A stretch of DNA of 59,087 nt, filler included, from Jimgerdemannia flammicorona (lineage: Eukaryota): assembly GCA_003990765.1 (NCBI GenBank). It is 3 parts of 3 records of this genome, joined end to end, with 100 filler letters (N's around TTAATTAATTAA, not from the genome) between each part and the next. Parts side by side here need not be neighbours in the genome. Positions count along the whole stretch, not along the records: positions 19,730 to 39,358 come from RBNJ01001892.1; 2 more parts are not named here. One strand, given 5' to 3'. The first letter of the stretch is position 1; each line of letters opens with the position of its first letter. Shown here piece after piece: positions 12,043 to 59,087 of this stretch. The notes beneath the pieces are model-generated. The model was given only the letters and a program-made list of their open reading frames with translations. It had not been told where the DNA came from and made no database searches. Position numbers and translations under genes: made by a program.

Positions 12043-13656
12043 TCAAGGCTGAGCAAGAAACTCCTTCACGTCGACAACCTTATTCTTCTGGCGAGCCTCT
12101 TCAGCTGCAAACACGTAAGCGTGCGACACTGCAATAGCAAGTCAGTTATGGACGGGAATCGGCAGATGTTAGCTAGCGAAGATAGCGATCCAATTTTCCA
12201 GGAGGGGTAGGGAAAGAAGAAAGAAATCAAGAAACGGAAAGCAGTTCCACTTACTCAGCGTTTCAGTCGGTGTTGGCAAACGCATAATCGACCCACTTAT
12301 GGGCGCTCCAGACTTAGCGGCAGCGACAGTATTAACGAAGGTGCCCATCAAGCCGGAGTCGCCGCCACCTGTAAAATTGCCAAGCACGGTGGAAATCAGG
12401 ACAGTTCGAAAAGCAACAAGGAAAGAAAATGAGGGTACACGAATACAAAGCTCCTACCATGTCCAGATAAATGAAAGTCCTCGCCGTTCTGTATCGCCTC
12501 GTTATACGGGTGTATCACCGTTCGGTTTTTCGACAGGAAATCAAACCAGGAGATCTCATTGGTCTCGTGGTCACAATCGAGCTGACCAAGGCTACCGTAA
12601 ATCCGTGTCTGCCATACGGGTCAGAGCCAGGAATAATGCGTCAACCAATGGCATTGTGTTAAGGCTTGGAAGAGCAGTCGTACATACCTTGCGTGCGCAT
12701 TGAGCCTCGGTGGTTGCAATCATGGTGAAGCTCGCGGTGGCGCCATTCGCAAATTGGAGATTGACCACCTAATCAAGTTTGGTAAGCAGGTAATAAACAA
12801 CAGATAACGATAAACAGGCATCATGATATAAAGATTTTCAGCATTTACCTGGTTATCCATAACGTTGTTATCACTTTCATAGACGCATTGACCATAGGGT
12901 CCGATTTTTAGTGCATCTGTAAGGTTCTCAATATCTACCAGTGAATAGAGCAGGAACAAAAAGGAAAAATTTCTTAAAATTGTGGATACCCAACAATTCA
13001 CTACTCGAACACGGAAGTAAAAATAAAATAAAAAATGACAGCAAGTTTCCCCTCCAGACTCACCGAGAACGTTAGTGACAACGTTAATCGGCCAACCTCT
13101 GTTACCGTTTTTGAAGTCGTCTATGTAAATCTTCTTGGCATCGTAAGGACATTGAGCCGCATGTGGGCAAGAAAGGCAGTTGCTATTGGCACATTGAATG
13201 GGCGATTTCGAGAATCATTTACAACGGACTCCAGGCAAATATGCAACCAAATAGACGGGCTCCTAAATATTCGCAAGAAAAGTTCACGCACATTGCATTG
13301 CCCGCCTCTTTGGGCTTATTGGCCTTGTTGAAGTGGTGGAGGGAGCCGAACGAGCTAACTTTCTGTAGAGGCGGTTAATCGCTAAGTGATAGTACGTCTG
13401 TATACATGGTTCTTGGTGAACTATGAATACATATATATATTCCGTACCTCAACGGGAATGCCCATAAACCATGCGATAATATCTATTTCACAATTTTAAG
13501 GTCATAATGAGTTTACATTAAGGTTATATTGGAATGTTGGACTCTTCTCCACAACTTCCGTCGATGCAACGTAGTGAATGTACGCGGAAGTCAAACATAC
13601 CAATGTCGTGGCAGCTCTGTTTATTCGCGGCCAAAAATATCATGTTAGTATTGGTC

Positions 13657-13708
<52 letters not shown>

Positions 13709-15067
13709 GGTAGGGAGCGTCTTGATCAGCTTCACCTTAGTCATCAATGAGAAACTTGACGTATTCTCATCTTTCCAATTTCCGCGTACGAACTGGAAAG
13801 CGAAAGCGACTAGTCATATTTTTTGTTTATGCTCTCAAAAAGACGTTCAACTAGCATTAGACGGACGGTCAACTCTCACTAGTAGTTATACCCACCGAAT
13901 GAGCAAAATGCCACCATCCCACCGGCTCCAGATGCTGAATATTGATAACATTGCCAAGCTTTCCGGAATCAAGAATAGATTTAATACGAAGGTTGAGAGG
14001 GTTATAGCGGAGAACATGACCTTGTTTATGAACCACAAAAAACAATCAACGAATCAGTTAATCAGTTGAGATGTGACTCTGCGGAAAGGAGCCATAGCAA
14101 CAACCAATGCTCATACCGATTCCGAAGAGTATCTGATACACAAAATGAATGTGTCAACACTTAATACAACGAACAATTTCGATGATTGAAACTTAGTGCC
14201 CCTCACAAACGTCATGCACAAACATTACCTCGTTCACTTTCACTGCCTCTATAATACGTTTGCATTCGTCAAGTTTTACGGCCATAGGTTTCTCTAAAAG
14301 TATGTGATACTTCAGATTTGCGAAAGCTACACAGGATGTTTCCCATAAATAAACAAAAAGTTAAAATAATTCTGAAATTCGGAAATCATTAAAGTTGAGA
14401 TATCATTGAGAAACACAAATTTTTGCTAACCAATAGCTGGCTCGACGTGAAACTGGTCCAGCGTGGTGATAACCACAGCGTCTGCGAATTTCGAACGGGA
14501 GGCAAACTTGGCACAGTGACGGAAATGAAAAAAAAAAAAAAAAAAAAAGGCTCTTCAGTTCGTGTGTTCTTTGACATAGCTGACAGCCCTTCACAGCGAG
14601 CAAACGGGTATACCTCCTTCCAATCGGTAACGTCATTTTCTTCTGGGATATTGTACATCTGCGAATGTGTATATAATTAAATACACGGTTTAGATCTATA
14701 ATTCTCATGCATCTGCCATCACGAAGACATCTAAACAGCCGACTAGGATTTCGCTGACCTTGGTGAAACTCTCCCTCCTGGTTTGAGAGCACAAATTCAC
14801 AGCCAATGTTAAAGCGCAATACAAGGCAAATCGAGTTTACAGCCTTAGAGTATCTTCATACCTGATCTGAACTGGCTCGGCCACGCCAATGACCTTCACT
14901 CGATCAGGGAACTTCAGAGCATAGCTGGCGTAAGCTGTGCCACTGATGACATTTTTCATTCAAATAAGCCAGAGAACGTGAAAGATATTTGATGTTAGCG
15001 AGTGCGAAATACCGTACCGTTGCCCGGCTCCGATAACAAGAATGGTGATGGGATTTGATTGAGACAT
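12043..15067 (-). CDS. Multi-exon Gfo/Idh/MocA-family NAD(P)-dependent oxidoreductase
   Basis: Exons with GT-AG introns read [65 protein letters not shown] (EKP motif), HVLRYNP...[55 protein letters not shown] and [14 protein letters not shown]. Some internal exon edges are not resolved. Confidence 0.9.
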
Positions 15068-15887
15068 AGCGAGAAAAGAAAGAGAGGTCCAGATGTGCAT
15101 GTGACAAAGATGCCTATTTATAATTACTTGTTCTTTGTGGCGCGGTAACGTCACGCAAGGACTTGGGCAATATAAACAGAGCCGTAAGGACCCAATGGTG
15201 TGAACATTAACGAATTTGTATCAGTATTGCCATAATCAAGTCATTTCTGATGAATTATCTCGAATACCGGCAGCGGTTAGCCGCCCGTCCACCTCATCAA
15301 TATGGACACGTTACGTGTATATCTCGGTGTATACCATATCATCGAGGAACAGTATCTGCATCAAAGTACGCCTCTCTCAAGATGAAAAGTGTACTCTACG
15401 AGCTCAGTGGGAACGACCTATACTCCCCGATTGCAATAATAAAAAGAACTTCCGTAAGGAGAAGAGCTTAAAGACGTTATACCACGCAGGTAAACTGCAG
15501 TACATGAGTCCGGCCGGGACAGAAACACAGCCTATATCCCCCTGATCGGGCCCCCCGTAGGCCATAGGGGGGAGTGCTTGAGACATCATGTCACAGCGAA
15601 CTGCAGTACATGTAGTGCTCCGAATTTGGACTTTGATTCGAAGCAGGTCTTGACTCGATTCGTTACAAAAGCCCGATTCTGTATGAGAGATGCTTGAGAT
15701 GTCATGTCACACGGCTAACTGCAATACATGATCCGGTTGCAAACTGGCGAGTGGCGAAAAGTACAAAGAGAGACAAGCTACAATGGATGTCGAAGAATGC
15801 CTAGGGAATATAGTTTTATAAAGCGAGCGGTCGCGAACATGTCACAGCTCGATGAACTGTGAGGAGTCACAGCCAATCAGCCCCTGC

Positions 15888-18800
15888 TCACACATTAAAC
15901 GTCATGACCATATCTTTAACTCGAAGCCTGACGCTCTTGTCGCCAGGCCACTCGAACTTGACGTCCCTCAGTATAATAGTCACCGGGAGTTCCGATTGCC
16001 TTTCTCCCCCGCCATCAATCCCGAATGGGTACGTTCGGTAAGCCTTCTGCGACGCGCTTAGTGCTCCCCTCCCACCTTTGTCCGTGCCGGAGGCGGCGGC
16101 GCCGGGGGGCACCCCAGCCGACAGTGACGACGCCAGGATGCCGAAGATGCCTGGGTTCGGGCGCCACATGCGGACAGTGCTATCTTGGACGGAGCACGAG
16201 ACGACAGCACGGCCGTCAGGAGAGAACGAAAGAGCCGTAACAGGCCCGGTGTGGCCCTAATGGATTTTGCACAAAAGCAATTTTCAGTTTGTGGCAATGC
16301 GAGAGAGATGCTGATCTCTTTGGTGCGACAAGCAGCGCTATATGATATCAACACTCTGACGACCTCCTTCATTCACTCACCTCAAGCACAACCCACCGTG
16401 TCGCCGTCCGCAGATCATACACGATCACCGCGCCCTCAAGCGTACCGACAGCCAGCTTTTGTGATGGACCATGGAAGTCGATGGAAGGATAGCTTCAGCG
16501 ATTAAGAATCAATAGGTCAGTAAATTTTGCATATTAATATACGGCACGGATTTCGACCGGAATTACGTCTATTTAATCCTCTTCAGTCACACCCTCATTT
16601 GGGTACACAAAAACTCACGTCTTCACCAGATCATGTAACATGGCAGTCGCAGTTTGCAAGGCAACTTCACGCATGTTCGGCACGTTTGGATCAAGTGTGC
16701 GCACGACGGCTTCGGCCACTCGGGGGACGGATGAGTACAGCAGAGCGGGTTTCTGTGAACCAATAGAGATATGAAGAGGAGTATTGGGAGAAAGGAGACT
16801 CGTTAGAACTTGCGCTACGTTGAATCAACATATTGGGCATTGCTGCTGACAAAACTTTATCCAGGCCAAAAAAAAAAAAAAAATGAACCATCCACTTCAC
16901 AAAGCTCTAGACACAAAAACAAAGCCCACTGACCTTCCTCACGACCAACGATATGACCCTCAATATAGCTGTTCGATCCGCGGGCTTCTTGGCGTTCATC
17001 AGGTCAAACGTCATCGTCGACACAAACAAGGGCGTGTTGGCTGTAGCAATTTGGAATATGGAGTTTCGGGCCTGCCGTGTGACCTGCGCCGACGTTGTCC
17101 CACTGGAGTTAGTATTAGAAGAAGAGAGCAGGCCCGAGGATGATCCCGACACCGGGAACTCTGCAGGTTCGCTGGTGGCATATGCAAAGAGGGTGCGGAG
17201 GAGCTCAGAAGTTTTGAGATGTGTTGGCAAGTGAAGAATGGTCAAGGATAAATAAAGGGAACTAATGTTGGTGCATATGGATTTGTGCTAAAAATGCGGT
17301 TGGACTAACGGAAGGCACACGCAAAATTATAATAAAAGGATATAAGGCTCCCATGTGGCAAATCCTCTTGCCAATAACTCCATAGCCGCAATCCGAGACG
17401 ACGCCTTGGAATCGTCATTGAGCAGCAACGTGAGAGACAAAGCTACGGCTTTGGTGATCCTGATCAGTTTGCGGTTAGCCAAGTCAACGAGATGAAGGTT
17501 TTTAGGTAGACGTCCACTGGCCCGAACTTTGGTAAAGCGCACTTACGCCGGCGAGAGCACCTCCGAATGATCCGAGCCCATGATTCCAAGGATGAACGTT
17601 GATCGTGTCATGAGCTGCGTACCAATCTCATGAGTCGTATTCACAGGAACTGTTGGATCGGACAATAAGGAGGGACAGAATCCCAAGCGGAACGCCATTA
17701 TTTATGATAACTCGTCATGCATACAAAAGAGAACGCTTCAGTTGAACTAAAACTCACGGAACGCCAGCCAATACTTCACCGTGGCGGACCTGACTTCGGG
17801 CCGCATGCACAACAGTGCGTTCGAGAAGAGGGTCCGCGCGGATTGTTGCACATCGACTACCAGACCCACGATGTACAGTAGGAAGGATGGATATTAGAGA
17901 ATTGAAGTCCATAACTTTGGATATCAATCCCACATATTATTGCTCGTCAATCCGGTCCAAACAACAGAACGAAAACGATAAGAAACTTTACTCGAAGTAT
18001 CTTGCCAATACTTGGACAATAGCGAGAAGCTCGGGTATGCGAACCGCTCCCCGATTATCTCGGGTAGGATGGAAGTGTAGTGCGTAATCAACTCCGTCGA
18101 CTGCGCCTCTAATCCTATTGTGGCATTATCCGGTAATTTGCTTTCAATTGAAGATTCTACGAATTCAAATGTTCGACATAAAAGAAATGAAATGTAACCT
18201 TTCACGGATAGAAGCGACCTAACAAGGGAGACAACGGCTAGCAAACGCGATGCGGAAACGACAGGAGAAACGGTCCAGAATTCGCGGGGGTCAACGGAGG
18301 GGGCAATCAATGAAAAGTTGCCGTTCGCGCTGTTTGTGAGGAACAAATAAACAGCTTATAAGTGGGGAGGGGGAGGGGAGGGATTGAAGCATGATGACAA
18401 ACTAAGCATTGGTCAGATATCATTATCGAACATGATCCAACGCCATCCATGCTTCGTCCCATCCTCCTCACCCCGAATCGTCATTAAACTCACCCCCTCA
18501 CCCCAAATGTCAGATTGGCCGCCGGCCTTCCCAACCCCAACGACCGCTCGCATGTCTGATCAATGGCCTGATCGATTCCCCACGACATCAACGCAGCCAC
18601 TACGGTCGACACAACCGATGTATCGGCCCTCTTCTCCTGGTCGCGCGGCGCGCCCTGCGAGGCCTTGAGAATCGTGAACGAAGTTGACGTAGAGGGTTCA
18701 GTACTGGTCGTGGGCGTCGGAGTCCCGATGACCTCCTCGCCTGCAGGTTCGGAAATGTCGACGGAGGGCCGTATGGAGGACAGGGTGGAATGGTAAACGT

Positions 18801-19629
18801 CGTTGACGAGGTGCTTGATGTTGATCATGAAGATCTGAAGTGCTGGAGTATCTGTTTTTTCGGGAGGTGAGCGGAAGAGAGGGAGGAGGAATTTTAACTG
18901 GGCAGGTATCGGTGGGTAATGTAGTTATGCAAGAAGGTCAATTTATGTCTAAATAACTCGTAGCCACAGTCTCGTACCATCTGCTCCAGAGTACACCGGG
19001 AACGACGTGACGGTCTGCCGGAAACTGTTGGTCTTGTAATCGTCCCCCTTGACACGACTGGTAAATTCAATGTAAGTCAGCCAATCCGGCAACGCATAGT
19101 CGCCTTCAGTGGTCTTTCACAACTTCTCTTGTGCCCGCTGCTGAACCGCTCTTGATGCAACCCTCGATCTCACTATCAATCCTCACAGTTTCATCCCAAT
19201 AACCCACAACTCCACAACCCCACGGCTTCGCAAAGAATCCGTCAACGACCCACCTACCTAACCTTCCATCTTGAATCGTCCATAACCTCCGCCGCGGTCC
19301 TACCTGACACGACACGATCGACGTGCGCGGTTTGGATCTGTTACCCGTTGTGCCCCCCCCCCCAAAAAAATAAATAAATAAATAAAACGTGACGTTACGC
19401 GAGATGCATGGACTTGTAAAGAACGACTCTGCAAGTTGTCTACCCGGCCAAATCAGCGACAACTCCAACTCCATCCATCGCGCACCTGCCATACGAACGC
19501 CGTCCCGTCTGAATACGCCATGATCAGGTAGTCCTCGGCGGGGCGCCACTGAATCTGGCAGAGCGGGTATGAGTGACCGGGAAATATGTACAGACTTCTC
19601 GCGACAGAATATTTCCCACGTAGAAAAAA
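15888..19629 (-). CDS. WDR7: 3' part of a multi-exon WDR7 (rabconnectin-3 beta)-like WD40 protein; the 5' end lies beyond the segment edge
   Basis: Exons read LYIFPGHSYPLCQIQWRPAEDYLIMAYSDGTAFVWQ, PSFSLLSKYWQD, RIAAMELLARGFATWEPYI, VAEAVVRTLDPN, YPSIDFHGPSQKLAVGTLEGAVIVYDLRT and GHTGPVTALSFSPDGRAVVSCS; stop at 15888. Confidence 0.82.
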
Positions 19630-19729
19630 NNNNNNNNNNNNNNNNNNNNNNNNNNNNNNNNNNNNNNNNNNNNTTAATTAATTAANNNNNNNNNNNNNNN
19701 NNNNNNNNNNNNNNNNNNNNNNNNNNNNN
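19630..19729. other. Artificial 100-bp spacer (N run with TTAATTAATTAA)
   Basis: All-frame stop linker embedded in Ns; the flanking segments are each 19,629 bp. Confidence 0.95.
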
Positions 19730-28447: not shown

Positions 28448-28507
28448 ATATATTAATATAACTATTCTAAGTTATATTATCATTATTATAGTTTTGATCC
28501 TTACTAG

Positions 28508-30056
28508 TATAATAGTGATCTCAGAAGGATGATATCAGCACAAGAGACAGCCTTTCCTTACAAGCCACCAGATCAGAGTACAAGAAGATCATATAGTATG
28601 ACTCACCCAAGCTATAAGATGAGCAATGATGACTAACTGTGAGTCATTGGGACTACAATACAAATATCTTGAGGAATATAAAAGAAGGATCAAGGAACCA
28701 CAGTAGCAGCAACTCAACAAGACCCACTAATCCTGAAATAGCTCAAAAGACTTATTATAAACAAAATGCCTGCTGCTTGCCAAACCTCAAGATCAAGGAA
28801 CCACCAAGGCCCCTCAGTTGAGAAAAGGATGTTCCAAGACATCCAAAGAGTCATAAGGACCTGCACCATAAGGACTCCTAGTATCAACCTGGATACTGGT
28901 GACTCTTATCATTATATCCTCTACTATTATGAGATGGAAACAAGAATCACCATTGCTACTGAATGCCTTCAGATGTGGTAAGAATATGAAATAGGAAACC
29001 TCCTCTGCTGGGAATTCCCTCAAGCCAGTCCTCAAGAGTTACAAGATGCCACTTCTATAAATATATGTGAAATAAGGACAGCTAAGAAGATACATCAGAT
29101 CTTTAGGTATGTACTATGGTTGATCTCCAACTTGAAGTATACCAGAGTCTCAGACTTTAGGAATCTGTCAGCCTATCATATCAATATACTAGAAGCTATA
29201 GTAGCTACAGAGGTCCAGTCCACTATCACCCTCAATAGTGATGAGATAGAAGAGTTCTAGTATCCCATCCTCCAGGACAACCCAGATCAGTTTCTGCAAG
29301 GATTGATCTCAGTATTTCAAGGCTCTAGCATTCAGGTTAGACCTCCCCAAGACCCCACATTTGTTTCTTATTTTGTGGAAGAGAATGTCATAGATTGGAG
29401 AGCCCCCACTACTGAATATGATGATATTATCAGTGATGATATCATCTTACATGACCTATACAATGAGATAGATGAAATGTTCATAGATCTTATCTCTTTC
29501 AGCAATGACAAGGATGAAGCTCCCATGGTTCTGAATATTCTGCTTTAAAGTTCTTAGTGATACCAAATTCTGCCAGCATCCTTTTCCTGTGTAACAGTTA
29601 ATCCTTTTACTGGTATTCTGATCTTGTGTGACTCAGAATTCTTCCAGCATCCTTTTTCTATACTACCAAATTCTACCAGTACCCTGAACTTATACAACCA
29701 TCTATACTAATACTGGAATCTATACCAACAACTGTAGTTTTCTGTATTCCAGTATTTTATTTAATTATTGGAATTTATATTTAGCTTTATAACTTAGCAA
29801 TTATTGAATTATATTTTATATAAATACCTCTCTTATTTCCTTCAAAATAAAGTCAGTTCCAGTTTACTTATCCTCAGTTCCACACAAGCAATCTAAGAGA
29901 TAACAAGACAGTTTAAAGATAAGAAGTTTGAGGACTATAAGATCTTGGAAAGGCACTCCAATAAGAGCTTACTTATAACAAAATTGAGTTAGTCTAAGAG
30001 ATATACTTTGAAGAGAATCTGATATATTTGAAGGACTCAGTGACCATTACATGACA
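28508..30056 (+). repeat. 5' LTR of B copy 2 (~1550 bp)
   Basis: T(A)TAATAGTGA...CATGACA; direct repeat of 35735-37266. Confidence 0.9.
28766..29548 (+). pseudogene. LTR-encoded accessory ORF3 (~260 aa), unknown function
   Basis: A single frame MPAACQ...ATECLQMW*EYEIG...TAKKIHQI..ISNL.Y..DF..LQDNPDQFLQGL...VIDWRAP...FIDLISFS..EAPMVLNILL*. The internal stops are transition-type. Confidence 0.8.
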
Positions 30057-30085
30057 ACTTAGTGCCCATTGGCTGGTGATTTAAG

Positions 30086-33000
30086 ATGAATCCCTCACTT
30101 TTAAGCTGAAAAACAAATCACTACCACAATAACTACTCTGGCTACAAGAGTTATCTCTGTAAGAATTCAAGACAAGATAGAAATGTATCCCCCCACATTC
30201 TATAGATATACTACTGAAGAGTCAATCCTGACCTTCATTGAAGACTTTGAACAATTCGCTGCTATGTGAGTCCTCAATGTGGATGCACAATTGGCCCTTC
30301 TACCAGTCAGCCTCAGAGGACCTGCCAGAGATAAGTTCAATATAGCCACTATTGCTGATGCTGGTGTAGCCAGACTTGTCAACATGAAGACCTTTCTCAG
30401 AACTACATACTATACTGAAGAGATCAAGTAAGCTCTCAAGGATTAACTCAATACTATCTGCCAGAGACTCAGTAAAGATCCCAACTCATTTTATATCTGA
30501 ATCTGCCATCAGATTGTCTTGGCTGGCTGTGATGACTACCTCAAGAAATAAATAGCAGATTCAACCTTTCTCAAAGGAGTCCACTCTGAAATTGTCCTAG
30601 CAATCTGGTCTACCCCAGCTATACTGATCCTTGATCAAAAAGTGGTCTTTGCATAGAGATATTAGACTGCCAGACACCCTGCCAAACACTCAATAGAGAA
30701 AATAACTAGCATCAAAATGGAGCCATCAAAGCCAACTAGTATCATACCTATCACAGTTATAAACAGACAATCATCCCCACCTACCCCCAAGGCAGCCAAA
30801 GCTGACCCAGTAGAGGAACTTGCCAAGCAGTTTACTGAGATGACTGCACACCTTAGTGATATTGTTAGAGAAGTCTAAAGCACTAACAGGAGACCAGTAT
30901 AGAGATTTGTAGCTACTATAGAAGAATACAATATTACATACTTCAGATATAGAGAAGAAGGCTACTATGTAAAGAGTTGCATGATAAAAATAAGATATAG
31001 AGCCCAACTAAGTAATACTATCAGAATCAGAGAACAAATCAATATAGTAGTCATCAAGGAGATTGGTGACACTGATGATGAAGAATACTATAAGGAGCCC
31101 AAATTCTACCCTATTACTAAAGGTACCAGAACCCAGTCTAAGCCCTATGATAAGAAGAGCAACAGCAAGCCAGTTGGAAGACTGAAGAAGACTCCAGCTA
31201 TCACTATTCAAAGTAAGACCCAATCTGAGGAGATTGATCAAGATATGGAGTTAGATGAAGCTGCTCACCAAATCATTGAAGGTACTACTCCAGTCTCAGG
31301 CAAAAGTAATAGTAAGAAGGAACAGAAGCTGTGCAAGACCAAGATCTACTAGTATAATATCTACAAGGATCTTAAGGAACAGAAGATCAATGCTACTTTT
31401 GGACAGCTAGCTGAAGTCCCTGCCTTCAGATAGCAGTTGAGAGTAGGACTTGCAACCACTATCAAGAACCAAGAATACAAGATCATAGAAGCTCACAATA
31501 CATAAGAAGATGATCAAGAAGACTCAGGCAAAGAATCTGAAGACCAGTGCAGAACATCAGCCTATACCCCATATTAGATCAAAGATTGTATCTTTAATGC
31601 CATCATTGATACTGGTGCTGGAGGATGCCTTATGAGTAAGAAGACAATTGACCACTTAGGCTGGGACATTGAAGAGTCCACCAAGATGGTCTATGTTATA
31701 GCAGATAGTATATGAGCTACCCCCCTTGGCAAAATCCAAGAAGTCCCATCAAGATAAGAGGAGCTATCATCCCAGTAGATGTGATTGTTATAAGTGCCAC
31801 CAACTATGACACCCTCATTGGCAACTAATGACTTCATAAGGCCAAGGCCATCATTGACCTCAATGTCCAGAAGATATAGATCAACTATAGAGGAAGAAAG
31901 ATACAAGTCTCTATCAATGTCCACAAAGGAGTTCTACTAGATATGGAGGAAGGAGATGAAGAGGACACAGAAGTCTTCATATACTCAGTGAACAAGAATA
32001 AGAATAAGACACCCAAGCTCACAGATGAGCAGTGGTACAACAAGATTATCAATAGCTATGCTCCTCAAGAAAGATACCCCCATGATACTAGGATGTACTA
32101 CTCTGAACACCAGAATGACTGCTGGTTCTGTATCAGTGATGTCAGGAAAATCCACCAATAGAAGCATAAACAAGAAGCTGCTGAAGCAAAAAGGAAAGCT
32201 GAAGAAGATGACTAGTTCCCAGAGCTTCAAGCTGACAGTGATGATGAGGAGAAATAAGAACCAGACATCATCCTCAAGGTCAAGAAGTTTTACCCCAAAG
32301 CTAAGATCCTAGAATATAAGACTGAAAGAGTCATAAGAATGGACCTTACCAGTATTCAAGATACTACCCTTGAACCATAGACCACCACCCTACTTGGCAC
32401 TGGAATTGAAGTCAAGTTGCCAGAAAACTATACTAGATTTATCAAGATCAGGAGCAGTCTGGCCAAAAGCAAAATCTCAGTTGAAAGAGGAGTAATTAAT
32501 CCTGATTACACTGATGAGATCTTCCTCATAGTCAGGAATTACAACCCCACTACCCCATTTGAAGTCAAGAAGTATGACAGAATTGGCCAGATGCTGATCC
32601 ATGAAATCAAGAAGCCCAAGATCACCAAAGCCATCAAACTCATCAAGACTAAGAGAGGAGAACAAGGCTTTAGATCTACTGGAAGAGAAGCCTATACTAC
32701 CACTAAGATTACTGAACTTGAGCACAAAAAAGACAAGGACCAGAACAAATATATATATACCATTGGAGAAAACTTTCCTCTAGAAGAACAGCTTCTCAAG
32801 ATCCAGCATCAGAATGAAGGAGTACTTACTATAGACTTCAGAAATATCCACAATCAAGAACTCAAGTACTATTATGAAGTTGACACTGATGATACCAAGC
32901 CCATCTACCAGAAAGCCAGACCTATACCACCTGCCTACAGAGAATGGCTGTGAGCAGAACTCAAGGAAATAGAATAAGCTGAAATCATCAAGCAAGCTAT

Positions 33001-35370
33001 CAGTCCCAGGGCTTTATCCATTGTTCTTGTCCCAAAGAAAGGAAGTGAGTCTGGAGAGTTTATCTCAAGACTTTGCATTAACTATAGAAAGCTCAATACA
33101 ATCACTAAGAAGGATAGGTAGCTCTTCTCAAATATTCAAGAAATCCTTACCACCCTTGAAAGTGAAGCCAAATACTATACTACCTTGGATCTGTTTTCAG
33201 GCTTCTATCAGATTGGTCTCACTCAAGATACCAGTGAGAAATCAGCCTTCATCATATCTGATACCACCTATATCTACCTGCAAATACTATTTGGAATGTG
33301 CAATGCCTCAGTAAGTTTTCAGCAAATGATGAACAGAGTCTTCAGCAATGAGATTGGAAAATGACTCTTTGTCTATATTGATGATATAATCATCTTTAGC
33401 AATAATATATCAACCATATACAGCTAGTCCTCAAGAAGCTCAAGGAGTATGACCTCTACATCAAGCCTAAGAAGTGCAAGTTTGTAGCTCAGGAAATCAC
33501 CTACCTAGGACACCTCATCAATCAGACTGGAATCCATACAGACTCCATGAAGATTGAGGCTGTTGTAGTCTATCTAAGATCCAGAACAACTACAGAAGTC
33601 CATGCCTTCCTTGGACAGGCCTCCTACTACAGAAGATTCATCAAAGAATACTCCAACATTACAGCACCTATCTATGAGCTACTGAAGAAGGAGACCTAAT
33701 TCAAATAGACCAAGAAATACCAAGAAATCTTCAATAAACTCAAGACCAGATTGACCCAAGAACCCATCCTCAGAAGACTAGATTGGAACCTAGAGTTTAT
33801 TCTGCAAGTACTATAGAACTTGGAGCAGTCCTAGCTCAGAAGAAAGATGGACATAAATATGTCATCTCCTATGCAAGCCAAGATACCTACAGAGCAGAAC
33901 AGAACTATAAGTCATGTAAGCTCAAATGCTTAGTAGTAGTTTGGGCAGTAGACAAGTTCCACTACTATCTAGCCAGAAAATACTTCACTATTCAAATAGA
34001 CTATTCCACTCTTGTCTGGCTATTCCACACTCTGAACCCCAAAGAAATATATATCAGATAGATCTACAGACTACAAGATTATGACTGTACTATCAAGCAC
34101 CACCCAGGAAGAACCAATGCCAATGCTGATGTACTCTCAAGGATACCCCAAAACACTCTCATCAAGACTATTTAATATGAATAAGAAGTTATACTATGGA
34201 TTAATCAGCTATCTTGAGTAGCAGAAGATGCCCAATCACCTCAAACCCTGGACAATCACCATCATCAACTGAACTTGGAAACAGTTTGAACTAGATAACA
34301 CCACACTCAGAAAAGGAGAAAAGCTTGTAATATCTGAATACAAGAAGTATCAAGTAATGAAGGAAGTACACAAACAAGGATACCTAGGAGGAATCAATAC
34401 ATACAATAAGATAAAAAGAACCATGTGATGGCCCAAGATAGAAGAAGACCTGCACCAATTTGTCAAAGAATGTGACAAGTGCCAAAAACAGAAACAAGAT
34501 CAGCAAGACCAGGTACCTGAATCATCAAGAATTGAGTCTATCTCCTTCCACCACATCACAATAGATATTATTGGGCCACTATCAGTAATACTATTAGAAA
34601 ACCACTATGTTATAATTATTATAGACCTCTTTACCAAATAGATAGAAGTAGGAGCATTACAAGAAGTCAATGCCCTCTCTGTAGCTGACTTCCTGCACTG
34701 AGAAATCATCTGTCACTACAAAATACCAAAGCAAATCACTACAGACTGCAGTATAGAATTTGTCAATGGATTCCATGAGATAATATATCAGAAATATAGG
34801 ATTCAGCACATCAAGACCACTACATACCACCCTCAAGGAAATAGATAGACAGAGAGAACCAACAAGACCCTCAAGAACATCCTGATGAAGATCTCAGACA
34901 CATATGAGAATTGGGATAACTATCTCTCAACTGCCCTCTCTGTCCTATGAGATATACAGTTACAGAATACACACTTTATCCCAAGAGAACTGCTCTTTGG
35001 AGATGATTCTGATAGAATCTCAGTCACAAATCTAGACCTAACTTAGAGATAGGTTGACTCAGAAATCTAGAGACTATATAAAATCAGGAAGAAGGCTGAA
35101 GATTATATCATCAAGTTATAAGTACTGACAAAAAAGAATGCAGAAAAGAATCACAAGACTCTAGAACCCATCCAAATTAGAAAAAAGGTCCTACTGTATT
35201 GAAATATAGTAGAAGCCTTATGGTCGCAAAAACTGGACTCCAAATGAGAAGGACCCTGTTATGTACAAGATATCAAGAGAACTACCTTCTGGCTTAGAAA
35301 ACTCTCAGGGACTATACTGCCTACCACAGTACATAGGAACAGACTCAAGAAGTACTATGAACCTATATAA
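30086..35370 (+). pseudogene. gag-protease-CHCC module-dUTPase-RT-RNase H-integrase of B copy 2
   Basis: Protease IIDTGAGG ~31600; RT VYIDD ~33370; RNase H LGAVLAQ ~33820; integrase DIIGPL and TTYHPQGN..ERTNKTLK at 34560-34875; no chromodomain. Confidence 0.9.
32270..32685 (+). pseudogene. dut: dUTPase domain of B copy 2, between the protease and RT
   Basis: LKVKKF.PKAK..GTGIEVKLPENY...RSSLAKSKISVERGVINPDYTDEI...YDRIGQMLI...RGEQGFRSTG. Confidence 0.92.
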
Positions 35371-35734
35371 GAGAAGCAAAATGTGATAACTGCCCATGAG
35401 GTTCTAGTCCACAAATTGTAACAGCATGTCCCATAACTAGCAGGCAATCTGTCTGGACCATTCTCTAAGGGATATAGTACCAGCAACTACTCATTCATAA
35501 GACTTTCAAAGCCAGAGGAGTTTGAACCATCAACTGATTGATCAAGATCAGAATCAGGCCCTTGCTTTACATGAAGAGAGTGACTCTTCACCATTATGCC
35601 AAAATATATAGGTAAGACACCAGCCCATAAATACCACTTTTTGACCCCCTGCTAGAGGTTATAGGATCAGCAAATTTTTCAGGACTGGACCAATAAATAA
35701 GAATGTTCAAGAAGATCCTTATTCAGGAGGAAGA

Positions 35735-37266
35735 TATAACAGTGACCTCAGAATAATGATATCAGCACAAGAGACAGCCTTTCCTTATAAGCCACCAGAT
35801 CAGAGCACAAGAAGATCATATAGCATGACTCACTCAGACTACAAAATGAGCAATGATGACCAACTGTGAGTCATTGGGACCACAATATAAATATCTTAAG
35901 GAATATAAAAGAAGGATCAAGGAACTGCAGTAGCAGCAACTCAACAAGACTCACTAATCCTGAAATAGCTCAAAGACTTATTATAAACAAAATGCCTGCT
36001 GTCTGCCAAACCTTAAGATCAAGAAATCACCAAAGCCTCTCAGTCCAGAAAAGAATGTTCTAAGATATCTAAAGAGCCATAAGGACCTATACCACAAGGA
36101 CTCCTAGTGTCAACCTAGGTACTGATGAACCTTATCATTATATCCTCTACTGCTATAAAATGGAAACAAGAATCACCATTGCTATCAAATACCTCCAGAT
36201 ATGGTAAGAATACAAAATAAGAAACCTCCTCTGCTGAGAATTCCTTCAAGCCAGCCCTCAAGAGCTACAAGATACCACTTCTATGAATATATGTGAAATA
36301 AGGACAGCCAAGAAGATTTATCAGATTTTCAGATATATACTATGTCGATCTCCAACTTAGAGTATACCAGAGTCTCAGACTTCAGAGATCTGTCAGCCTA
36401 TTATATCAATGCACTAGAAGCCATGGTAGCTACAGAGGTCCAGTCTACTATCACCCTCAATAGTGATGAGGTAGAAGAGTTCTGGTATCCCATCTTCCAG
36501 GACAACTCAGATCAGTTCTTATAAGAATTGATCTCAGCATTCCAAGGCCCCAGCATCCAGGTTAGACCTCCCCAAGACCTCACATTTGTTCCTTATTTTG
36601 TAGAAGAGAATATCATAGATTAGAGAGTCTCCACTACCAAATGTAATGACATTATCAGTAATAATATCATCCTATGTGACATATGTGAAATGTATGACCT
36701 ACACAATGAGATGGATAAAATATTCATAAATCTCATCTCTTTCAGTGATGATGAGGATGAAGTCCCCATGGTCTTGAACATTCTGCTTTAAAGTTCTTAG
36801 TGATACCAAATTCTGCCAGCATTCTTTCTAATCTTATATGACTCAGAATTCTTCCAGCATCCTTTTTCTGTACCACTAAATTCTACCAGTACTCTGAACT
36901 TGTGCAACCATCTGTACCAATACTGAAATCTATACTGATAACTATAGTTTTCTGAATTTAAGTATTTTATTTGGTTATTAGAATTTATATTTAGCTTTAT
37001 AACTTAGCAACTATTGAATTATATTTTGTATAAATACCCCTCTTATTTCCTTTGAAATAAAGTCAGTTCTAGTTCACTTACTCTCAATTCCATATAAGCA
37101 ATCTAAGAGATAACAAGACAGTTTAAAGATAAGAAGTTTGAGGACTATAAGACTTTGAGAAAGTATTCTAATAAGAACTTACTTATAATAAACTTGAGTT
37201 AGTCTAAGAGATACACTTTGAAGAGAATCTGACATATTTGAAGGACTCAGCAACCACTATGTGATA
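35735..37266 (+). repeat. 3' LTR of B copy 2, containing an ORF3 copy at 35992-36791
   Basis: Follows the PPT and ends GTGA(T)A; direct repeat of 28508-30056. Confidence 0.9.
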
Positions 37267-39358: not shown

Positions 39359-39458
39359 NNNNNNNNNNNNNNNNNNNNNNNNNNNNNNNNNNNNNNNNNN
39401 NNTTAATTAATTAANNNNNNNNNNNNNNNNNNNNNNNNNNNNNNNNNNNNNNNNNNNN
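39359..39458. other. Artificial 100-bp spacer (N run with TTAATTAATTAA)
   Basis: Same linker as at 19630-19729. Confidence 0.95.
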
Positions 39459-39911
39459 ATCAGTTCTGTCCAGACTCTGATCCCGAACCATATTAAAGTC
39501 CCCACCGAGAACATCTACCCCTTCCTCCAAGAGAGTACCCTCCTCCAGCAATCCCCTAATCCAAGCAATCCGCTCACCCCTAGCCGCAGGGCAGTAGCAA
39601 GAGCCCACCTTTACCGATTCCCAACCTGGCCGATGCCAATCTCCCCAGACCAAGCTATCACCCCAGCTCCTGATTCCCCCCAAGTCTCCTCTGCCTTTCC
39701 TCACCAGAATTGCTACCTTTCCAAACCACGCAGCAACCCCTCCCCACTCCTTAGTCCACTCCGCCCGATCATCTTCATCCTCACATCGAACATCCTGCAA
39801 TAAAAAGAGATCAGCCTCCAATCCCTTGAGCCAAGTAAAAATGTTCCAACACCGCCCAGATCCCCTTAGCCCATTCACATTCAAGGAAAAAATGTTGGTT
39901 GTACTGTTCAT
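39459..39911 (-). CDS. LINE ORF2 N-terminus, APE-type endonuclease (partial)
   Basis: IFSLNVNGL, DLFLLQDVR, VAILV, CYCP and GGDFN motifs. Confidence 0.9.
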
Positions 39912-39943
39912 AGAGAATAATGATATATAACAAAGCCCATCCT

Positions 39944-41961
39944 CTAAAAGTCGGCATCCAGCCTCTCCTGCGCCAAGTCCAAGTTACGTTCAGCAGCCAG
40001 ATCCCTCTTCCCAGCTTCCCGTGCCTCCAACTCCCCCAGAAGTTCAACCATCGCCCCATCCTCACGCTCCTCAAAATTCTCGCGATACTCCAGACATGCC
40101 GCCTGCCAGAGCTGTAGACCCCGACGTTCCGCCCAACAGTAAGCTGCCCTCTCAGCAGCGACCACCCCCAGGTCTGCCTTCCTCACCTCATCCACCTCAT
40201 ATCCCTCCTCCTCCAGCAATATCGTCAGAATCTCCACCTTCAGCGCCTCCACCATTCCATCCCCATGCAGGATCCTAGCCCAATGCTCCTCAGGCATCGC
40301 CCGCAGGTCCACCTCCCCCAATGCTTCTGCCGCGAGGTCATCCATCACCTTGCGTACCCACAGCAAGTTCCCCTCCTCTTTCCCTCCCGGAGTCCCCGGC
40401 CGCCCTGCATCCAACATTGTAGTATCAGCTCCTACACTAGCAGCCTCATCCCACTCCTCCTCAGGGACATCCCCCAGCTCATCCTCTCCAACCGCCACCA
40501 CTTGACCCCCTTGAGCCACATCAGGGACCCCAAAGCGCACCTGCTGGGCCCCCTGCATCCGTGTATCCTCCGGCCTTCCTCACATCCCCACTGGGCCCCT
40601 CCTGATAAGTGGGGGGGGGGTGGCCTCCAACTCCGGCTCCCACACTTCAAAGGTACCCTCAGCAAACGGGTCCTTGACCAGCCCCTTCCCAGCACCTGCC
40701 TCCTTCACCTCCACCTCCTCTCCTCCTTTACCAGCCCAGACACTGGCCTCAGCACCCCCAGACTCCTTGGCTTCACCCGACGGCTTCTTCCCCCCACCCG
40801 ATATATCCTCCAACAGCTCCTTCTGCCTCTTGCGACCCTGGATCCACTCCCACTTCTTCTTATCCATACGGATACGCCTCCCGCCCACAACCTCCAGATG
40901 TGTCGATTCCTCGAACAGTTTCCAAGCCTTCGCCCTCCTCTCTACAGCACCACCCAACTCCTCCAGCGCCTCCAACAAGTCCTCCTCCTCCTCTTCGCTC
41001 CCCTTCACCCTCGACACCTTGCAGATGACAGCCCCCCACATCAGCACCGAGGGCCAGTCACTCGGCTTCCCTGTGGCCTCTTTCCCTGCCAACCGAATCC
41101 TGACATCGACGTCGCCCGTCCTGATAGTCGTCCCCTCCCACAGTTGAAATCCAATGTCCACCACATCGCCATACTCAACCATCACCTCCTCCACCCTCCT
41201 CCTAGTCTCCTCCTTAGTCACCATGGGCACCCCCCTCACCAGAAGCTGCACGACCCTGGGATCCCACCTCAAGCACCTAACCATGGAGACCACTACCTCC
41301 CCAACCATCACTCCTGACTTCATGGCCTTGTCCAGTAGGCCCGCCTCCTCAAAGCCCACCTCCACCCCCTCCATGCCCTTCAAGAACTTCACCGAGGCTG
41401 CACCAGCCACCTGCTTCGAGATAAGCCCCAAGACCATCCTCGCCGTCACCGCCAAGCCCCGGAAGCACAAGGTAGCCACGAACTCCGAGATCGACTTTTT
41501 GAGCAACGGGGCTACCGCCAGTCCTGTTACACCATCAGCCAGGTCCCCCTTCCGCATCGGGAGCCCCTGCCCCCCCTGGCCATCAACTGTCACATCTCTT
41601 TTTTTTTCCAGATTCGCCGTCACGCCACCATCAGCAGTCCCACCACTACCTCCAGCCATCCCTCCACTTCCCCCACCTCCACCCAGCGAAGGTCCAGCTC
41701 CCCCAGTAGTTCCATCCTTCTGCTTCTCCTTCCCTCCTGCCAGTCCACCACGAGTGCCCAATGGCCAGCCCCCACCCCTCAACGTGTCCGCAAAGCTCCT
41801 CCCCTGCTTCCCTCCAGCCCCCCCACCAGTGCCACCTCCACTACCCGAGCCGCCCTGCCCACTCGAGCTACCGAAAGACCCCCCCTCTCGACAGTCTGCC
41901 AGTCGAAGGCCCCAGGTCCACCCGACCTAGTACGTGCGTCGGCTTGCTTGCTGGTTGACAT
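39944..41961 (-). pseudogene. LINE ORF1 (Gly-rich N-terminus, RRM-like core, acidic C-terminus), frameshifted
   Basis: ATG at 41961. Frameshifting deletion near 41885 relative to the copy at 1-204, and a second shift between ORFs 40580-41782 and 39944-40558. Confidence 0.75.
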
Positions 41962-42040
41962 TGCCTTAGTATCTTTTGCCAATAAATGCTTCGAAAGTAT
42001 GTTGAAAAGTGTGTGTAATGTGAATTGTAGCGGAGAAAGA

Positions 42041-43096
42041 TGCTGTATACTGCCTATATCCCTCAAGGAGCTCAACTTCTCCACCTCCTCCCATGCATCC
42101 AGACCTCCACTTCTCCCCCCTGCACTCCTCCCTCCATCAGTTCTGTCCAGATGCTGATCCCAAACCATATTAAAGTCCCTACCGAGAACATCGACCCCTT
42201 CCTCCAAGAGAATATCCTCCTCCAGCAGCTCCCTAATCCATGCAGTCCTCTCACCCCTACCTGTGGGGCAGTAGCAAGAGCCCACCTTCACCGATTCCCA
42301 CCCTGGCTGATGCCAATCTCCCCAGACCAAGTGATCACCCTAGCTCCTGATTCCCCCCAAGTCTCCCCTACCCTTCCTCACCAGAATCACCACTTTTCCA
42401 AACCAAGCAGTAGCCCCACCCCATTCCCTAGTCCACTCTACCCGATTGTCCTCATCCTCATACCGAACATCCTGTAGTAAAAAGAGATCAGCCTCCAATC
42501 CCTTGAGCCAAGTAAAAATGTTCTTATGCTGCCCAGAGCCCCTTAACCCATTCACATTCAAAGAGAAAATGTTGGTTGTACTATTCATAGAGAATAATGA
42601 TATATTGTGATTCCATCCTCTACAAGTCCACATTCGGCTCCTCCTGCACCAAGTCCAAGTCATGTTCAGTAGCTAGTTCCCTTTCCCCAGCTTCCTGTGC
42701 CTCCAACCCTCCCAGAAGTTCTACTATTGCCCCATCTTCTTGCTCCTCAAAGTCCTCATGTTACTCTAGACAGGCCTTCTGTCAGAGCTGCAAACCATGA
42801 CACTCTGCCCAACAGTAGGCTGCCCACTTATCAGTGACCACCACCAGCTCTGCCTTCCTCACCTCATCAACCTCATATTCCTCCTCCCCTAGGAAGATTA
42901 TAAGAATCTCCACCTTCAGTGCCTCTACCACTCCATCGCCATGCAGAATCCGCGCCCAATGCTCCTCAGGCATTACCTGCAGGTCCACTTCTCCCAATGC
43001 CTCTGCTGTGAGGTTATCCATCACCTTGCTCATCCACAACAAGTTCCCCACCTCCTTCCCTCCTGGAGTCCCCGGCTGCCCTGCATCCAACATCAT
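42041..43096 (-). mobile_element. Older, CpG-depleted fragment of the same LINE (ORF1 end + endonuclease)
   Basis: Colinear with 39459-40420. It is cut at 42040 by the younger LINE 5' end and at 43097 by the C1 LTR. Confidence 0.88.
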
Positions 43097-43881
43097 TGTA
43101 ATAACTCTCACTTCTACCCCTCTCTTATTCTTTGGATAATTAGGGAAGTGGACTATTACTTAGGGACTTAGTATACAATGTATACCAAGAAGCCTTCAGT
43201 TTGAGAAAGTGCTTGCTTATAAATAGTTGTAGTGGCAGTGCCTTCTGTTTCAAAGGTCTTTCTCTTGTGCCCTATTTCAAGGGTCTTATTCCTTGCTGTG
43301 CACAGACTGAATTCGCCTTGGAATTCAGGTTCAATGGGTTTACTTAAGTCTTTAGGGATTTATATACCAGTCTCAGTTCTGGCAGAAGTTAGCTAGGCTT
43401 CTGGAGTTTAGTCAGAAACACTAGAGTCACTTAGGTGTCATTATTAAGACTCAGGGGAATATGTGTGTGTGGGGGGGACTTGATTCTTGTATCAAGAACT
43501 GAACTAAAACTGCTTTATTTCAGATGGAAACTGGGGAGTATTTATACAAGTTGGTCTGTGATTTCTGACTAAGTATGAGTGACTAATTTGGTAACTATAA
43601 TGAGGTTTGTGATCATGACCTTTGTCAGGTGGTTTTTTGCAAAAAACATCTTTGTGATCAGGACCTCAATTACTAGGCAATGATCAGCTACTGTGGCAAC
43701 TGTTGCTGCAGTGCTGATTGTTGGAGATAAGCTGGATATCATTTTTCACGTCATTTTTGCATCGTTTGTCCATTTGTCATTTGTTATTCATATGTTGTGC
43801 TCGATCATTGATGACATCATTGCCAGTCATATGATCGCTTGTCACATCTTGTCTGTTTGCTCATTCATTCATTGTATTACA
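43097..43881 (-). repeat. 3' LTR of C copy 1 (785 bp)
   Basis: TGTAATA...TATTACA termini; PPT (minus AAGGAGGGAAGGA) adjacent. Confidence 0.92.
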
Positions 43882-43892
43882 TCCTTCCCTCC

Positions 43893-44726
43893 TTAGAAAT
43901 CAATGTCCTTGTTGATTCAGAAATTGAGAACCAGAGGAGAATCCTCCTCAGGGTTGTTGTCATCTTCTTCAATAGTAGGGGAGATAGTGATTGCTGATGG
44001 CTTGCTGTCCAGGGTAGAGAAGTCAATGAGATCTGCAAATGGTTCTTACATGGGGATGGATGCTGGTGTAGGGGTTCTCCATCTGATACAGTTGGGGCCA
44101 TCCAAGTAGGGTTCTTGATCTTCATGTCTAGGAATATCCATTCGGATGGGCTGTCCTTCAAAGAGGTCAGATAGGCCTTAGAACCATTGGTCAGGGTTGT
44201 CATTCAGGAGGGGGCTCCAGTAGGGTTCACAGTCAGTAGACTTGAGGGTGATCCATGAGTTGGCTTCTTGGGCTATCTTGATCTCTAGTTCATCAACCTT
44301 GAAGAAAGAGAGGTTCTGGAAGTCCTTCAGTTGGACATAATTGAGGTTTGGGATTGTGAAGAGTGCATGGCACATGATTCGATGGACCTTCTTGGCAAGT
44401 CTTTGCTTGCTTCCATCCAGGTGGGTCCAATCAGAGACTTGATCCATGGGCAGGTCCTTTGCCCATTGGAGGAGTTGGTGGCCAATCTCGTATTCATGCC
44501 AGATCTCTAGGCAGCTGGTAGCAAGGTAGGCTCTTTCAATGACATTATGGCTGTTGAGGACATAGTGTCCTAGGTCCTGGCTGGAGAGGTTAAGGGCCTC
44601 TGAGTAGCAGTTCCTTCTTTGGATAGCAACCTGGATGTGTCCAAAGAGGCAGTCAACCTGGCTTGGGAGGGGCTGACTATGGCGGGCAGTTTGGCGGTGG
44701 GTAGCTTGGCTGTGGGTAGCGGGCAT
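43893..44726 (-). pseudogene. Accessory ORF3 of C copy 1 (~280 aa), unknown function
   Basis: ORF 44178-44726 plus its in-frame continuation (GLSDLFEG..NCIRWRTP..FADLIDFS..SPLVLNF); ends at the PPT. Confidence 0.82.
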
Positions 44727-45369
44727 TCTTGTCTTGTCTTTTCTTTGTGAGGAGAGGGAGATGAAGGTTACGGGGTATTCTTGCTTTGGGTATTTATACT
44801 TATTTCCCCCTCTGGTGTGATCTTCCTTTGGTCATGCTTTCTAGTGAAATGTGTGACCTATTGCTGTAAGTGGGACATGTACTGGTCATATGAGAAAATC
44901 CTGATTTTAACGATATCGTCACTCATAGTTGTGGTTACACAGGGTTAACAGGTCTTGGTCCACTTTTTTTTTGTCTGGTTGGCACATTTGTGAGGACTGG
45001 CCATCCTTGTCTAGGGCAAGGGCTCCTATTGTCATGGCTGGGGGTTTGAACCTCTCGGAAATAGACATTTCTTGTAATCCGAGGCAATTTCTAGTAATAA
45101 TATCTGTCACATGAATGGACTTAGACTGGTTTTGACATTGTCAGCTTTCCTAAGTTCCACATGAAGCATCCATAATCATCCAGCGGAGATGATACAGATG
45201 GTGTGAAATGGAGTTGTTCAAATGTATTTTGCTGTACTGTGCTAGACTGTTCTTTACTCGAGCATCTTCTTGTTGATTATCCATAGTATTCCTTTTTCTG
45301 CAATGTTCAGTATTATATGTTTCCAGATAAAATATATGATATCCTTCTGCTCACTATGTGCTCTAATTC

Positions 45370-51300: not shown

Positions 51301-51390
51301 AGGATCCACAGTTGGTTCTGGGGGTTACTCCTGTCCAAGGTTGGTCTTGTTCCAACTTCAGGAGTGTGTTCTTTGGTGCCTTCTCGGCTG
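45370..51390 (-). pseudogene. gag-NC-dUTPase-CHCC module-protease-RT-RNase H-integrase-chromodomain of C copy 1
   Basis: CFICKKAGHISFRC knuckle; LLDSSATGNY protease; [15 protein letters not shown] and YIDD RT; TDASDIAIGAVL RNase H; HH-CC, SDRD and STAYHPQTD integrase; GPY; EEFEIEEVLDH..FLIKWKGY..TWE chromodomain. The gag start is approximate. Confidence 0.92.
49085..49475 (-). pseudogene. dut: dUTPase domain of C copy 1, in frame after the zinc knuckle
   Basis: ASYDLYSS..TGIAIQAPKGTY...ERSSLAK...GGGVVDQGFTG...DRGKKGFG. Confidence 0.9.
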
Positions 51391-51410
51391 GTAATCTGCT
51401 GCTACCAAGT

Positions 51411-51792
51411 TGTAATAACTTTCACTTCTACCCCTCTCTTATCCTTTGGATAATTAGGGAAGTGGACTATTACTTAGGAACTTAGTATACAATGTGTACC
51501 AAGAATCCTTCAGTTTGAGGAAGTACTTGCTTATAAGTAGTTATAGCAGCAGTGTCTTCTATTTCAAAGGTCTTTCTCTTGTGCCCTATTTCAAGAGTCT
51601 TGTTCCTTGTTGTGCACAGACTGAATTCACCTTGGAATTCAGGTTTAATGGGTTTACTTAAGTCTTTGGGGATTTATATACTGGTCTCAGTTCTGGCAGA
51701 AGTTAGCTAGGCTTCTGGAGTTTAGTCAGAAACACTAGAGTCACTTAGGTATCATTACTAAGACTCAGGGGAATATGTGTGTGTGGGGGGGA
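51411..51792 (-). repeat. Partial 5' LTR of C copy 1, interrupted by C copy 2
   Basis: Matches 43097-43478, then restarts as a new LTR at 51793. Confidence 0.88.
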
Positions 51793-59074: not shown

Positions 59075-59087
59075 TTTTTTTTTTTTT

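Follow-up and report, generated by a model that had tools for sequence, protein, structure and literature searches.

ORF3, an accessory gene inside the long terminal repeats of Ty3/Gypsy retrotransposons in Jimgerdemannia flammicorona

Results

Family B elements and their surroundings

The window, that is, the whole 59,087-nt stretch of J. flammicorona DNA analysed here, consists of three contigs of a 231-Mb genome (35,354 contigs), separated from one another by N-linkers (19630-19729 and 39359-39458), so that the retrotransposon families B and C found in it are not genuine neighbours. CpG is nearly absent from the window repeats and normal in the gene-bearing region at 12-19 kb. Host genes with normal CpG lie at about 12700-19500 (-) and include a WD40-repeat gene and, within the same interval, what we take from its motifs to be an oxidoreductase-like gene, for which the piece tested gave no Pfam match. 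GC-rich LINE-like fragments, with an endonuclease (PF03372) and a partly duplicated 960-bp segment, occupy 39459-43096; positions 41774-42039 also match positions 1-283, on another contig.

The middle contig carries two family B elements, B1 and B2, arranged head to head with only 60 bp between them (28448-28507). The 5' LTR of B2 (28508-30056, +, 1549 bp), which starts with TA and ends with GACA, aligns over its full length and at 85-89% identity to three further window copies: the B2 3' LTR (35735-37266, +), the B1 5' LTR (28447-26883, -) and the B1 3' LTR (21174-19735, -), which the contig end truncates. Among the B LTRs, similarity in the 3' copies sets in directly behind a purine tract; in the 5' copies it stops directly before a common PBS-like sequence. 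In B2 the polypurine tract (PPT) AGGAGGAAGA (35725-35734, +) directly precedes the 3' LTR and the PBS-like site (30057-30076, +) directly follows the 5' LTR, which confirms the LTR borders given in the initial annotation. The TG..CA ends named there apply to most other B copies, which begin with TG, but not to the copy at 28508, with its initial TA. A 14-nt part of the PBS-like site has 1064 exact matches in the genome (control: 0), and a genome search for its primer tRNA matched only element copies among the matches listed.

Between its LTRs, B2 contains a decayed gag-PR-dUTPase-RT-RNaseH-IN region (approximately 30180-35370, +). The family B gene order, gag followed by PR-RT-RNaseH-IN with a dUTPase between PR and RT, is that of Ty3/Gypsy elements, and the direct LTRs with TG..CA ends, PPT, PBS-like site and short target duplication are those of an LTR retrotransposon. 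B2 itself has no target duplication (flanks CTAG and ATAT), and its ends therefore rest on the PPT, the PBS and other copies. Lacking this duplication and standing head to head with B1, B2 may be a recombinant.

ORF3 occupies 28766-29548 (+) in the 5' LTR of B2, corresponding to LTR positions 259-1041, and spans 260 codons with internal stops at codons 72 and 165. Each of the other window LTRs has its own copy, frameshifted in the B2 3' LTR (35992-36791) and in the B1 5' LTR (28190-27394), and interrupted by several stops in the B1 3' LTR (20916-20137). All four window copies are broken, two of them by stops only and the remaining two by a frameshift plus stops. Together with the full-length LTR alignment, these copies bear out the proposal that each B element holds ORF3 twice.

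ORF3 lies within the family B LTR across the genome

A protein search of the genome returned 6,945 candidates, from which 147 B-type matches were scored, 49 of them stop-free. We examined 70 B loci, the 30 best-scoring and 40 chosen as stop-free, a sample that leans to well-preserved copies. The LTR start was found 238-261 nt upstream of the ORF3 start codon in 65 of the 70; three of the other five are truncated by a contig end and two have no resolved start. We also looked for copies in which a shorter LTR, defined by target duplications, would exclude ORF3, and the LTR start preceded ORF3 in those same 65 loci. ORF3 is therefore placed wholly inside the B LTR, as initially annotated.

Both LTR ends could be located in 46 loci, and the LTR measured 1425-1636 bp in 44 of them. 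Eighteen were followed by the PBS-like site, 15 came after a PPT, and 13 had neither and were considered solo candidates. Eleven of these 13 are flanked by an exact 4-bp duplication (five ATAT, two ATAC, and one each of GTAT, GTAG, ATAA and TTGA); of the other two, one has a duplication that differs at one position, and the second probably represents a 3' LTR. The ATAT duplications carry little weight, as words of this type are preferred at insertion sites; the six other duplications do not share this weakness. We noted in families B and D a strong insertion preference for 4-bp (A/C/G)TA(T/G/C/A) sites, mostly ATAT. ORF3 is stop-free in nine of the 11 solo LTRs with exact duplications, seven of which also retain the ATG; the expectation that solo LTRs carry the gene thus holds. 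Among six B LTR pairs, three are flanked by 4-bp duplications, one is tandem, one has a mismatch and the window pair has none.

Genome-wide, an LTR-start pattern was matched exactly 1354 times, in 412 cases following the PPT hexamer (controls: 0). As this pattern catches 35 of the 65 sampled B starts, we estimate roughly 2,500 B LTRs in the genome and put the solo share, likewise only roughly, at a quarter to a third. Considering these results, we conclude with high confidence that ORF3 (~260-280 codons) is a genuine accessory gene lying wholly in the U3 of the ~1.5-kb family B LTR, U3 being assigned from the TATA and AATAAA motif positions described below. Like the sag gene of mouse mammary tumour virus (MMTV), it is a coding sequence in U3 that is present in both LTRs and in solo LTRs.

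Predicted promoters around ORF3

A TATA-like box, TATAAAAG, lies at 28677-28684 (+), 89 nt upstream of the ORF3 start in B2, and is the predicted ORF3 promoter; TATAAAAR is found 84-92 nt upstream of the start codon in 65 of 70 B copies. A second TATA-like box, TATATAAATA, at 29817-29826 (+), agrees with the one initially annotated near 29818, downstream of ORF3. It is the predicted promoter of the genomic RNA, and the same motif is found in the LTRs of families C, D and E. Across B copies the second TATA lies ~200-300 nt downstream of the ORF3 stop and is followed after 28 nt by AATAAA in 43 of 48; the sole AATAAA of the B2 5' LTR (29846-29851, +) is a predicted poly(A) signal at the U3/R border. 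The positions of TATA and AATAAA predict a very short R and an ORF3 mRNA that starts and ends within one LTR. Transcription from the upstream TATA would yield this ORF3 mRNA, unspliced and terminated at the AATAAA within that LTR; the genomic RNA would come from the downstream TATA. Judging from these motifs, each B LTR is probably a two-promoter unit in which ORF3 has its own predicted transcription unit.

In family C, TATAAA(T/C)A occurs at a fixed place about 65-72 nt before the ORF3 start, and in family E TATAAAAG lies upstream of ORF3 in three copies. Family D has only a weak TATA-like TATTTAA upstream of ORF3. Tandem arrays were found between ORF3 and the second TATA in seven of 10 B LTRs (35 bp) and in two of three D and one of three E LTRs tested, and none was detected at the corresponding place in C (LTR or promoter) or in A.

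ORF3 in families C, D, E and A

In family C, the ORF3 stop directly abuts a purine tract that is followed by the LTR start in 50 of 50 copies, in agreement with the earlier observation that this homologue ends at the PPT and outside the LTR. In the window it lies at 43893-44726 (-), with the PPT at 43892-43882, the LTR from 43881 and the TATA at 44798-44791; a second, frameshifted copy lies at 52591-53422 (-). The B and C ORF3 proteins are 35% identical in the window (E 1e-36) and 40% identical between intact copies. Family C is a chromovirus, with a chromodomain (PF00385, E 1e-13) at the integrase C-terminus, and the C pol query stops matching B before the chromodomain position. A metagenome scan returned one ORF3 locus, L211, with the C layout, its stop lying directly before the PPT. 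The window part of family C (43096-59077, -) consists of tandem elements with a common LTR; one LTR (51413-52174) contains an internal ~380-bp duplication.

Family D, for which 150 matches were scored, has ORF3 in an LTR of 2.4-3.0 kb that starts 206-216 nt upstream of the ATG; exact duplications flank three solo copies. Its 5' LTRs (L216, L221) are followed by TTTTGGGGGCTC, which differs from the PBS-like site of B and resembles a tRNA-Pro primer site. In family E, a PPT-like tract and an LTR start precede ORF3 in two copies and a flank-bounded LTR start precedes it in a third, so the in-LTR placement rests on the left LTR end. Diverged B subfamilies (L224:5530-9900; L002:1-927), with 61% identity to B in gag, 77% in pol and 73% in an LTR piece, also have ORF3 in the LTR. 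For family A, the window comparison gave no ORF3 match. ORF3 is therefore found in the LTR in B, D and E, just outside it in C, and is absent in A.

The family A element in the window (3995-10846, -) combines a C-like gag piece, a dUTPase, a protease, a D/E-like integrase end and an E-like LTR start; no RT was found in it, and its make-up suggests a non-autonomous mosaic. Pfam recognises a dUTPase in families B and C (32339-32725 in B; 49342-49743 in C, where the piece is weak), and A shows dUTPase-like motifs at about 6382-7021. In B the dUTPase separates PR from RT; in C and A it precedes PR.

The ORF3 protein and its selection

An open frame of 260-330 codons starting with MP(A/P) has been kept in B, C and D at 28-40% identity. 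The N-terminus is basic and arginine-rich (9 K/R in residues 1-45) and the tail, by composition, is acidic (18 D/E in the last 55 residues), like the acidic C-terminus of foamy-virus Tas. There is no hydrophobic segment (maximum 19-residue hydropathy 0.31). Two AlphaFold2 models (pLDDT 65 and 76) predict a helical core (in the model at 76) containing a helix of 37 residues, along with a short beta hairpin and an acidic, disordered tail.

Pfam gave no match above threshold for four ORF3 proteins and 11 alignment members, and fold searches with both models gave none that reached E 0.001 (best Z 5.4 and 4.3), an absence that does not make the fold new. Helix-turn-helix-like rows (Z 3.5-4.2) were absent with the better model and were dropped, as were RNase III rows (E 0.5 or more, not significant). 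Searches of a 5.8-billion-sequence set returned 5, 8 and 6 matches, all unnamed metagenome proteins, and a profile search of 1.84 billion representatives returned 7; P0014, a candidate relative, was discarded as an ankyrin-repeat protein. The whole protein had no match in the Atlas (best 0.83); its core matched unnamed clusters at 0.91, one of them mostly Basidiomycota, which we treat as a lead only. A short motif resembling one in ORF3, which we presumed to exist in other fungal hypothetical proteins, was recovered by no search. Two public homologues used as queries led to further ORF3 families in the genome. Searches with P0013 (15 loci, weak matches only, E 6e-7 or worse) and with P0011 (matches at about 50%) fell many times on family C contigs and gave no clearly new family.

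Because decay consists mostly of transitions, the neutral baseline was measured from the two LTRs of single elements and gave dN/dS of 0.28-0.78 (eight within-element pairs). For ORF3 we obtained 0.09-0.11 between B and E, 0.14-0.15 between C and L211, and 0.11-0.21 in five B pairs; the between-family values are well under the baseline, with dS near saturation in those pairs, and most copies behind these three sets of values had been chosen as stop-free or high-scoring. Twenty-eight between-element B pairs gave 0.16-0.74, many overlapping the baseline. A codon-position test of transversions gave a weak result. We conclude that ORF3 was under selection while the elements replicated. Inserted copies decay at near-neutral rates and contain many stops; since they decay freely, there is no sign of host selection or domestication.

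Discussion

We found that a selected protein gene lies wholly within the LTR of a Ty3/Gypsy family in J. flammicorona. The closest precedent is MMTV sag, together with related betaretroviral sag genes: a selected U3 gene that is copied with the LTR and preserved in solo LTRs, which made up 490 of 527 contigs in one survey (PMC4667437). The same source supports the parallel with sag that had been drawn for this locus, and states that 'the majority' of sag is in U3 and that it acts on host T cells. Sag is retroviral, whereas ORF3 is soluble, lies wholly inside U3 and belongs to env-less Ty3/Gypsy elements. Our Pfam and fold searches gave no homology to Sag, and by hydropathy ORF3 has no membrane anchor.

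Other LTR retrotransposons carry extra genes, among them the plant aORFs (Grande gene23, RIRE2, Retand) and the fungal Boty (PMC7264820), Retrosat2 ORF0 (PMC3485330) and the sunflower aORFs (PMC11728184). These are conserved genes without known function, like ORF3, and the layout of family C is of this kind; Grande gene23 has its own promoter and is nuclear (PMC7264820). They differ in being internal, located upstream of gag or in the stretch from pol to the 3' LTR, and the accessible parts of these sources describe none in an LTR. In bdelloid rotifers, ORF3 types are common to unrelated dUTPase-bearing LTR lineages (PMC5408684), a similar modular gain and loss, although those genes encode known enzymes or env-like proteins (GDSL, DEDDy, TM) and, in the part of the paper at hand, are not described in an LTR. 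Our literature search, which covered mostly non-subscription texts, found no protein gene wholly inside a retrotransposon LTR.

The distribution of ORF3 suggests that it has moved. The pol or integrase sequences of B, C and D are only 30-37% identical, and ORF3 (40% for B against C) is at least as well conserved as pol. In the ORF3 core, identities are 40% for B-C, 28% for B-D, 56% for B-E and 25% for D-E. The E integrase is 58% identical to that of D (73% at the DNA level), and the B integrase query gave no match; this comparison uses one decayed E copy (L226), the integrase end being found also in L223. Family E thus combines a D-like integrase with a B-like ORF3, pointing to ORF3 as a module that moves between lineages. 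From these comparisons, it is quite probable that distant Gypsy lineages have exchanged an ORF3 cassette; a possible route would be template switching involving co-packaged RNAs. The initial annotation had instead suggested that the PPT/LTR boundary moved, and a simple shift between B and C is made less likely by the distance between these lineages and by the incongruent position of E.

A more detailed version of that idea would start from one ancestral element with ORF3 before the PPT, where a new PPT arose upstream, the old one decayed, and ORF3 was drawn into the LTR by descent and with no exchange. The spacing from the pol stop to ORF3 is indeed alike in B and C (about 630-640 nt), and an LTR-start-like TGT(T/A)ACAC repeat beginning 7-9 nt after the B stop is a weak hint in the same direction. 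However, no purine tract follows the B ORF3 stop, the relationships of ORF3 and integrase conflict for E, and D, the most distant well-sampled ORF3, is likewise inside the LTR. In addition, A and E share the integrase end, a post-pol block and the LTR 5' end at 72-77% DNA identity, yet only E has ORF3 behind that LTR 5' end, a contrast that looks like gain or loss of ORF3 inside U3. Already weakened by these conflicts, derivation by descent appears unlikely to us. In the ORF3 tree, rooted at the midpoint only and with P0013 as a long, half-empty row, B and E group together (99/99), C groups with its relatives (94/90), and D falls outside (93/91). Since D, with ORF3 in the LTR, lies outside B+E and the C group, the in-LTR placement may be older than the C layout. 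A single exit from the LTR in C would be the shortest reading, a weak one given the exchange, and the LTR-start-like repeat behind the B stop, though lacking a purine tract, speaks against it.

Regarding function, we tentatively favour a role for ORF3 as a nuclear transactivator or anti-silencing factor, a proposal by analogy to which we give somewhat less than an even chance. ORF3 would be a nuclear regulator made early from its own promoter and acting on the LTR of the element, much as foamy-virus Tas does and possibly via the tandem repeats between ORF3 and the second TATA. Plant VANC anti-silencers offer a further analogy. Tas/Bel1 is a nuclear accessory protein expressed from a second promoter, with a C-terminal acidic activation domain, and binds the internal and LTR promoters (PMC517496). 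An acidic C-terminus is common to both, and a second promoter is predicted for ORF3; sequence and fold searches gave no link between them, and DNA binding and activation by ORF3 are hypothetical. We favour a regulator on account of the predicted separate promoter, the Tas-like basic and acidic build, the family-specific repeats next to the promoter and the CpG-stripping host. Differences accumulated after insertion are ~88-96% transitions and the repeats have lost their CpG, consistent with a methylating host that an element would gain from counteracting. Against a regulator count the presence of ORF3 in C with no detected tandem array, the weak TATA of D, and the lack of a Pfam or fold match or of a homologue of known function. 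Family A spreads without ORF3 and may borrow it in trans.

The main rival is a Rev- or CERV-like factor that would export or stabilise the element RNA, with a post-pol block of ~300 nt as its response element; we consider this unlikely. CERV, the accessory protein of the Gypsy element Cer1 of C. elegans, exports genomic RNA (PMC10309623); it is a novel accessory protein of an LTR retrotransposon with a nuclear role, to which ORF3 can be likened by description, and is made from a spliced mRNA, unlike the predicted unspliced mRNA of ORF3. The arginine-rich N-terminus of ORF3 would suit such a role. The block itself (~250-300 nt; 44931-45233 (-), 53627-53929, 4844-5141 and 10179-10482 in the window, and L188:2602-2851 and L223:174-463) keeps 74-82% DNA identity across A, C, D and E despite widely differing pol. 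Nevertheless, B has ORF3 and no block was found in the B elements searched, while A has the block and no ORF3. Its predicted folding does not surpass that of shuffled sequences (z -1.14), Rfam gave no match for the block, and its two-sided changes are mostly CG-to-UA or GC-to-AU, which transition decay also produces. None of these results supports the block as a structured RNA; with frameshifts between copies, it stands as a cis element without explanation.

An action on the host, as an RNA-silencing suppressor or a selfish toxin-antidote or drive factor spreading with solo LTRs, would agree with the thousands of LTR copies and their many stop-free frames (a third of the scored B matches), and the MMTV gene is itself host-directed (PMC4667437). 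The near-neutral, stop-ridden decay of inserted copies speaks against this, as does the lack of a second gene or known motif, the RNase III rows not being significant, and we regard it as quite improbable. The position of ORF3 after pol in C matches that of env-like ORFs (PMC7264820), but the protein has no transmembrane or signal-like segment, as the hydropathy maximum indicates, and matches nothing among predicted viral structures, so that an env-like or movement protein is largely refuted and hardly credible.

Taking the preferred reading as a whole, with a U3 gene, a two-promoter LTR, cassette exchange and a regulator, we assign it a probability of roughly 0.45. Reverse transcription copies U3 to both ends of an element, and LTR-LTR recombination leaves a solo LTR. 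ORF3 is consequently doubled with each insertion and survives in solo LTRs. In its boldest form, which we find rather doubtful, each solo LTR would be a complete unit for a new-fold regulator that activates or de-silences its own family in trans; the cassette would be traded among distant Gypsy lineages, and hundreds of solo LTRs would act as a distributed helper supply against host methylation.

What is new here is the presence of ORF3 in the LTR of families D and E as well, its position just outside the LTR in the chromovirus C, and its absence from A. Retrotransposon LTRs are taken to be non-coding, and solo LTRs to be regulatory remnants. As three families have a selected protein gene in the LTR, solo LTRs can be genes, which gene annotation or repeat masking will misfile. 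ORF3 in the LTR provides a retrotransposon parallel to MMTV sag, and the series of families with the gene inside, outside or absent offers natural material on how accessory genes cross the PPT and move between lineages. Should ORF3 prove to be a transactivator or anti-silencer, it would represent a new protein family and a compact, testable system for asking how retroelements attain copy numbers in the thousands where the genome is heavily depleted of CpG.
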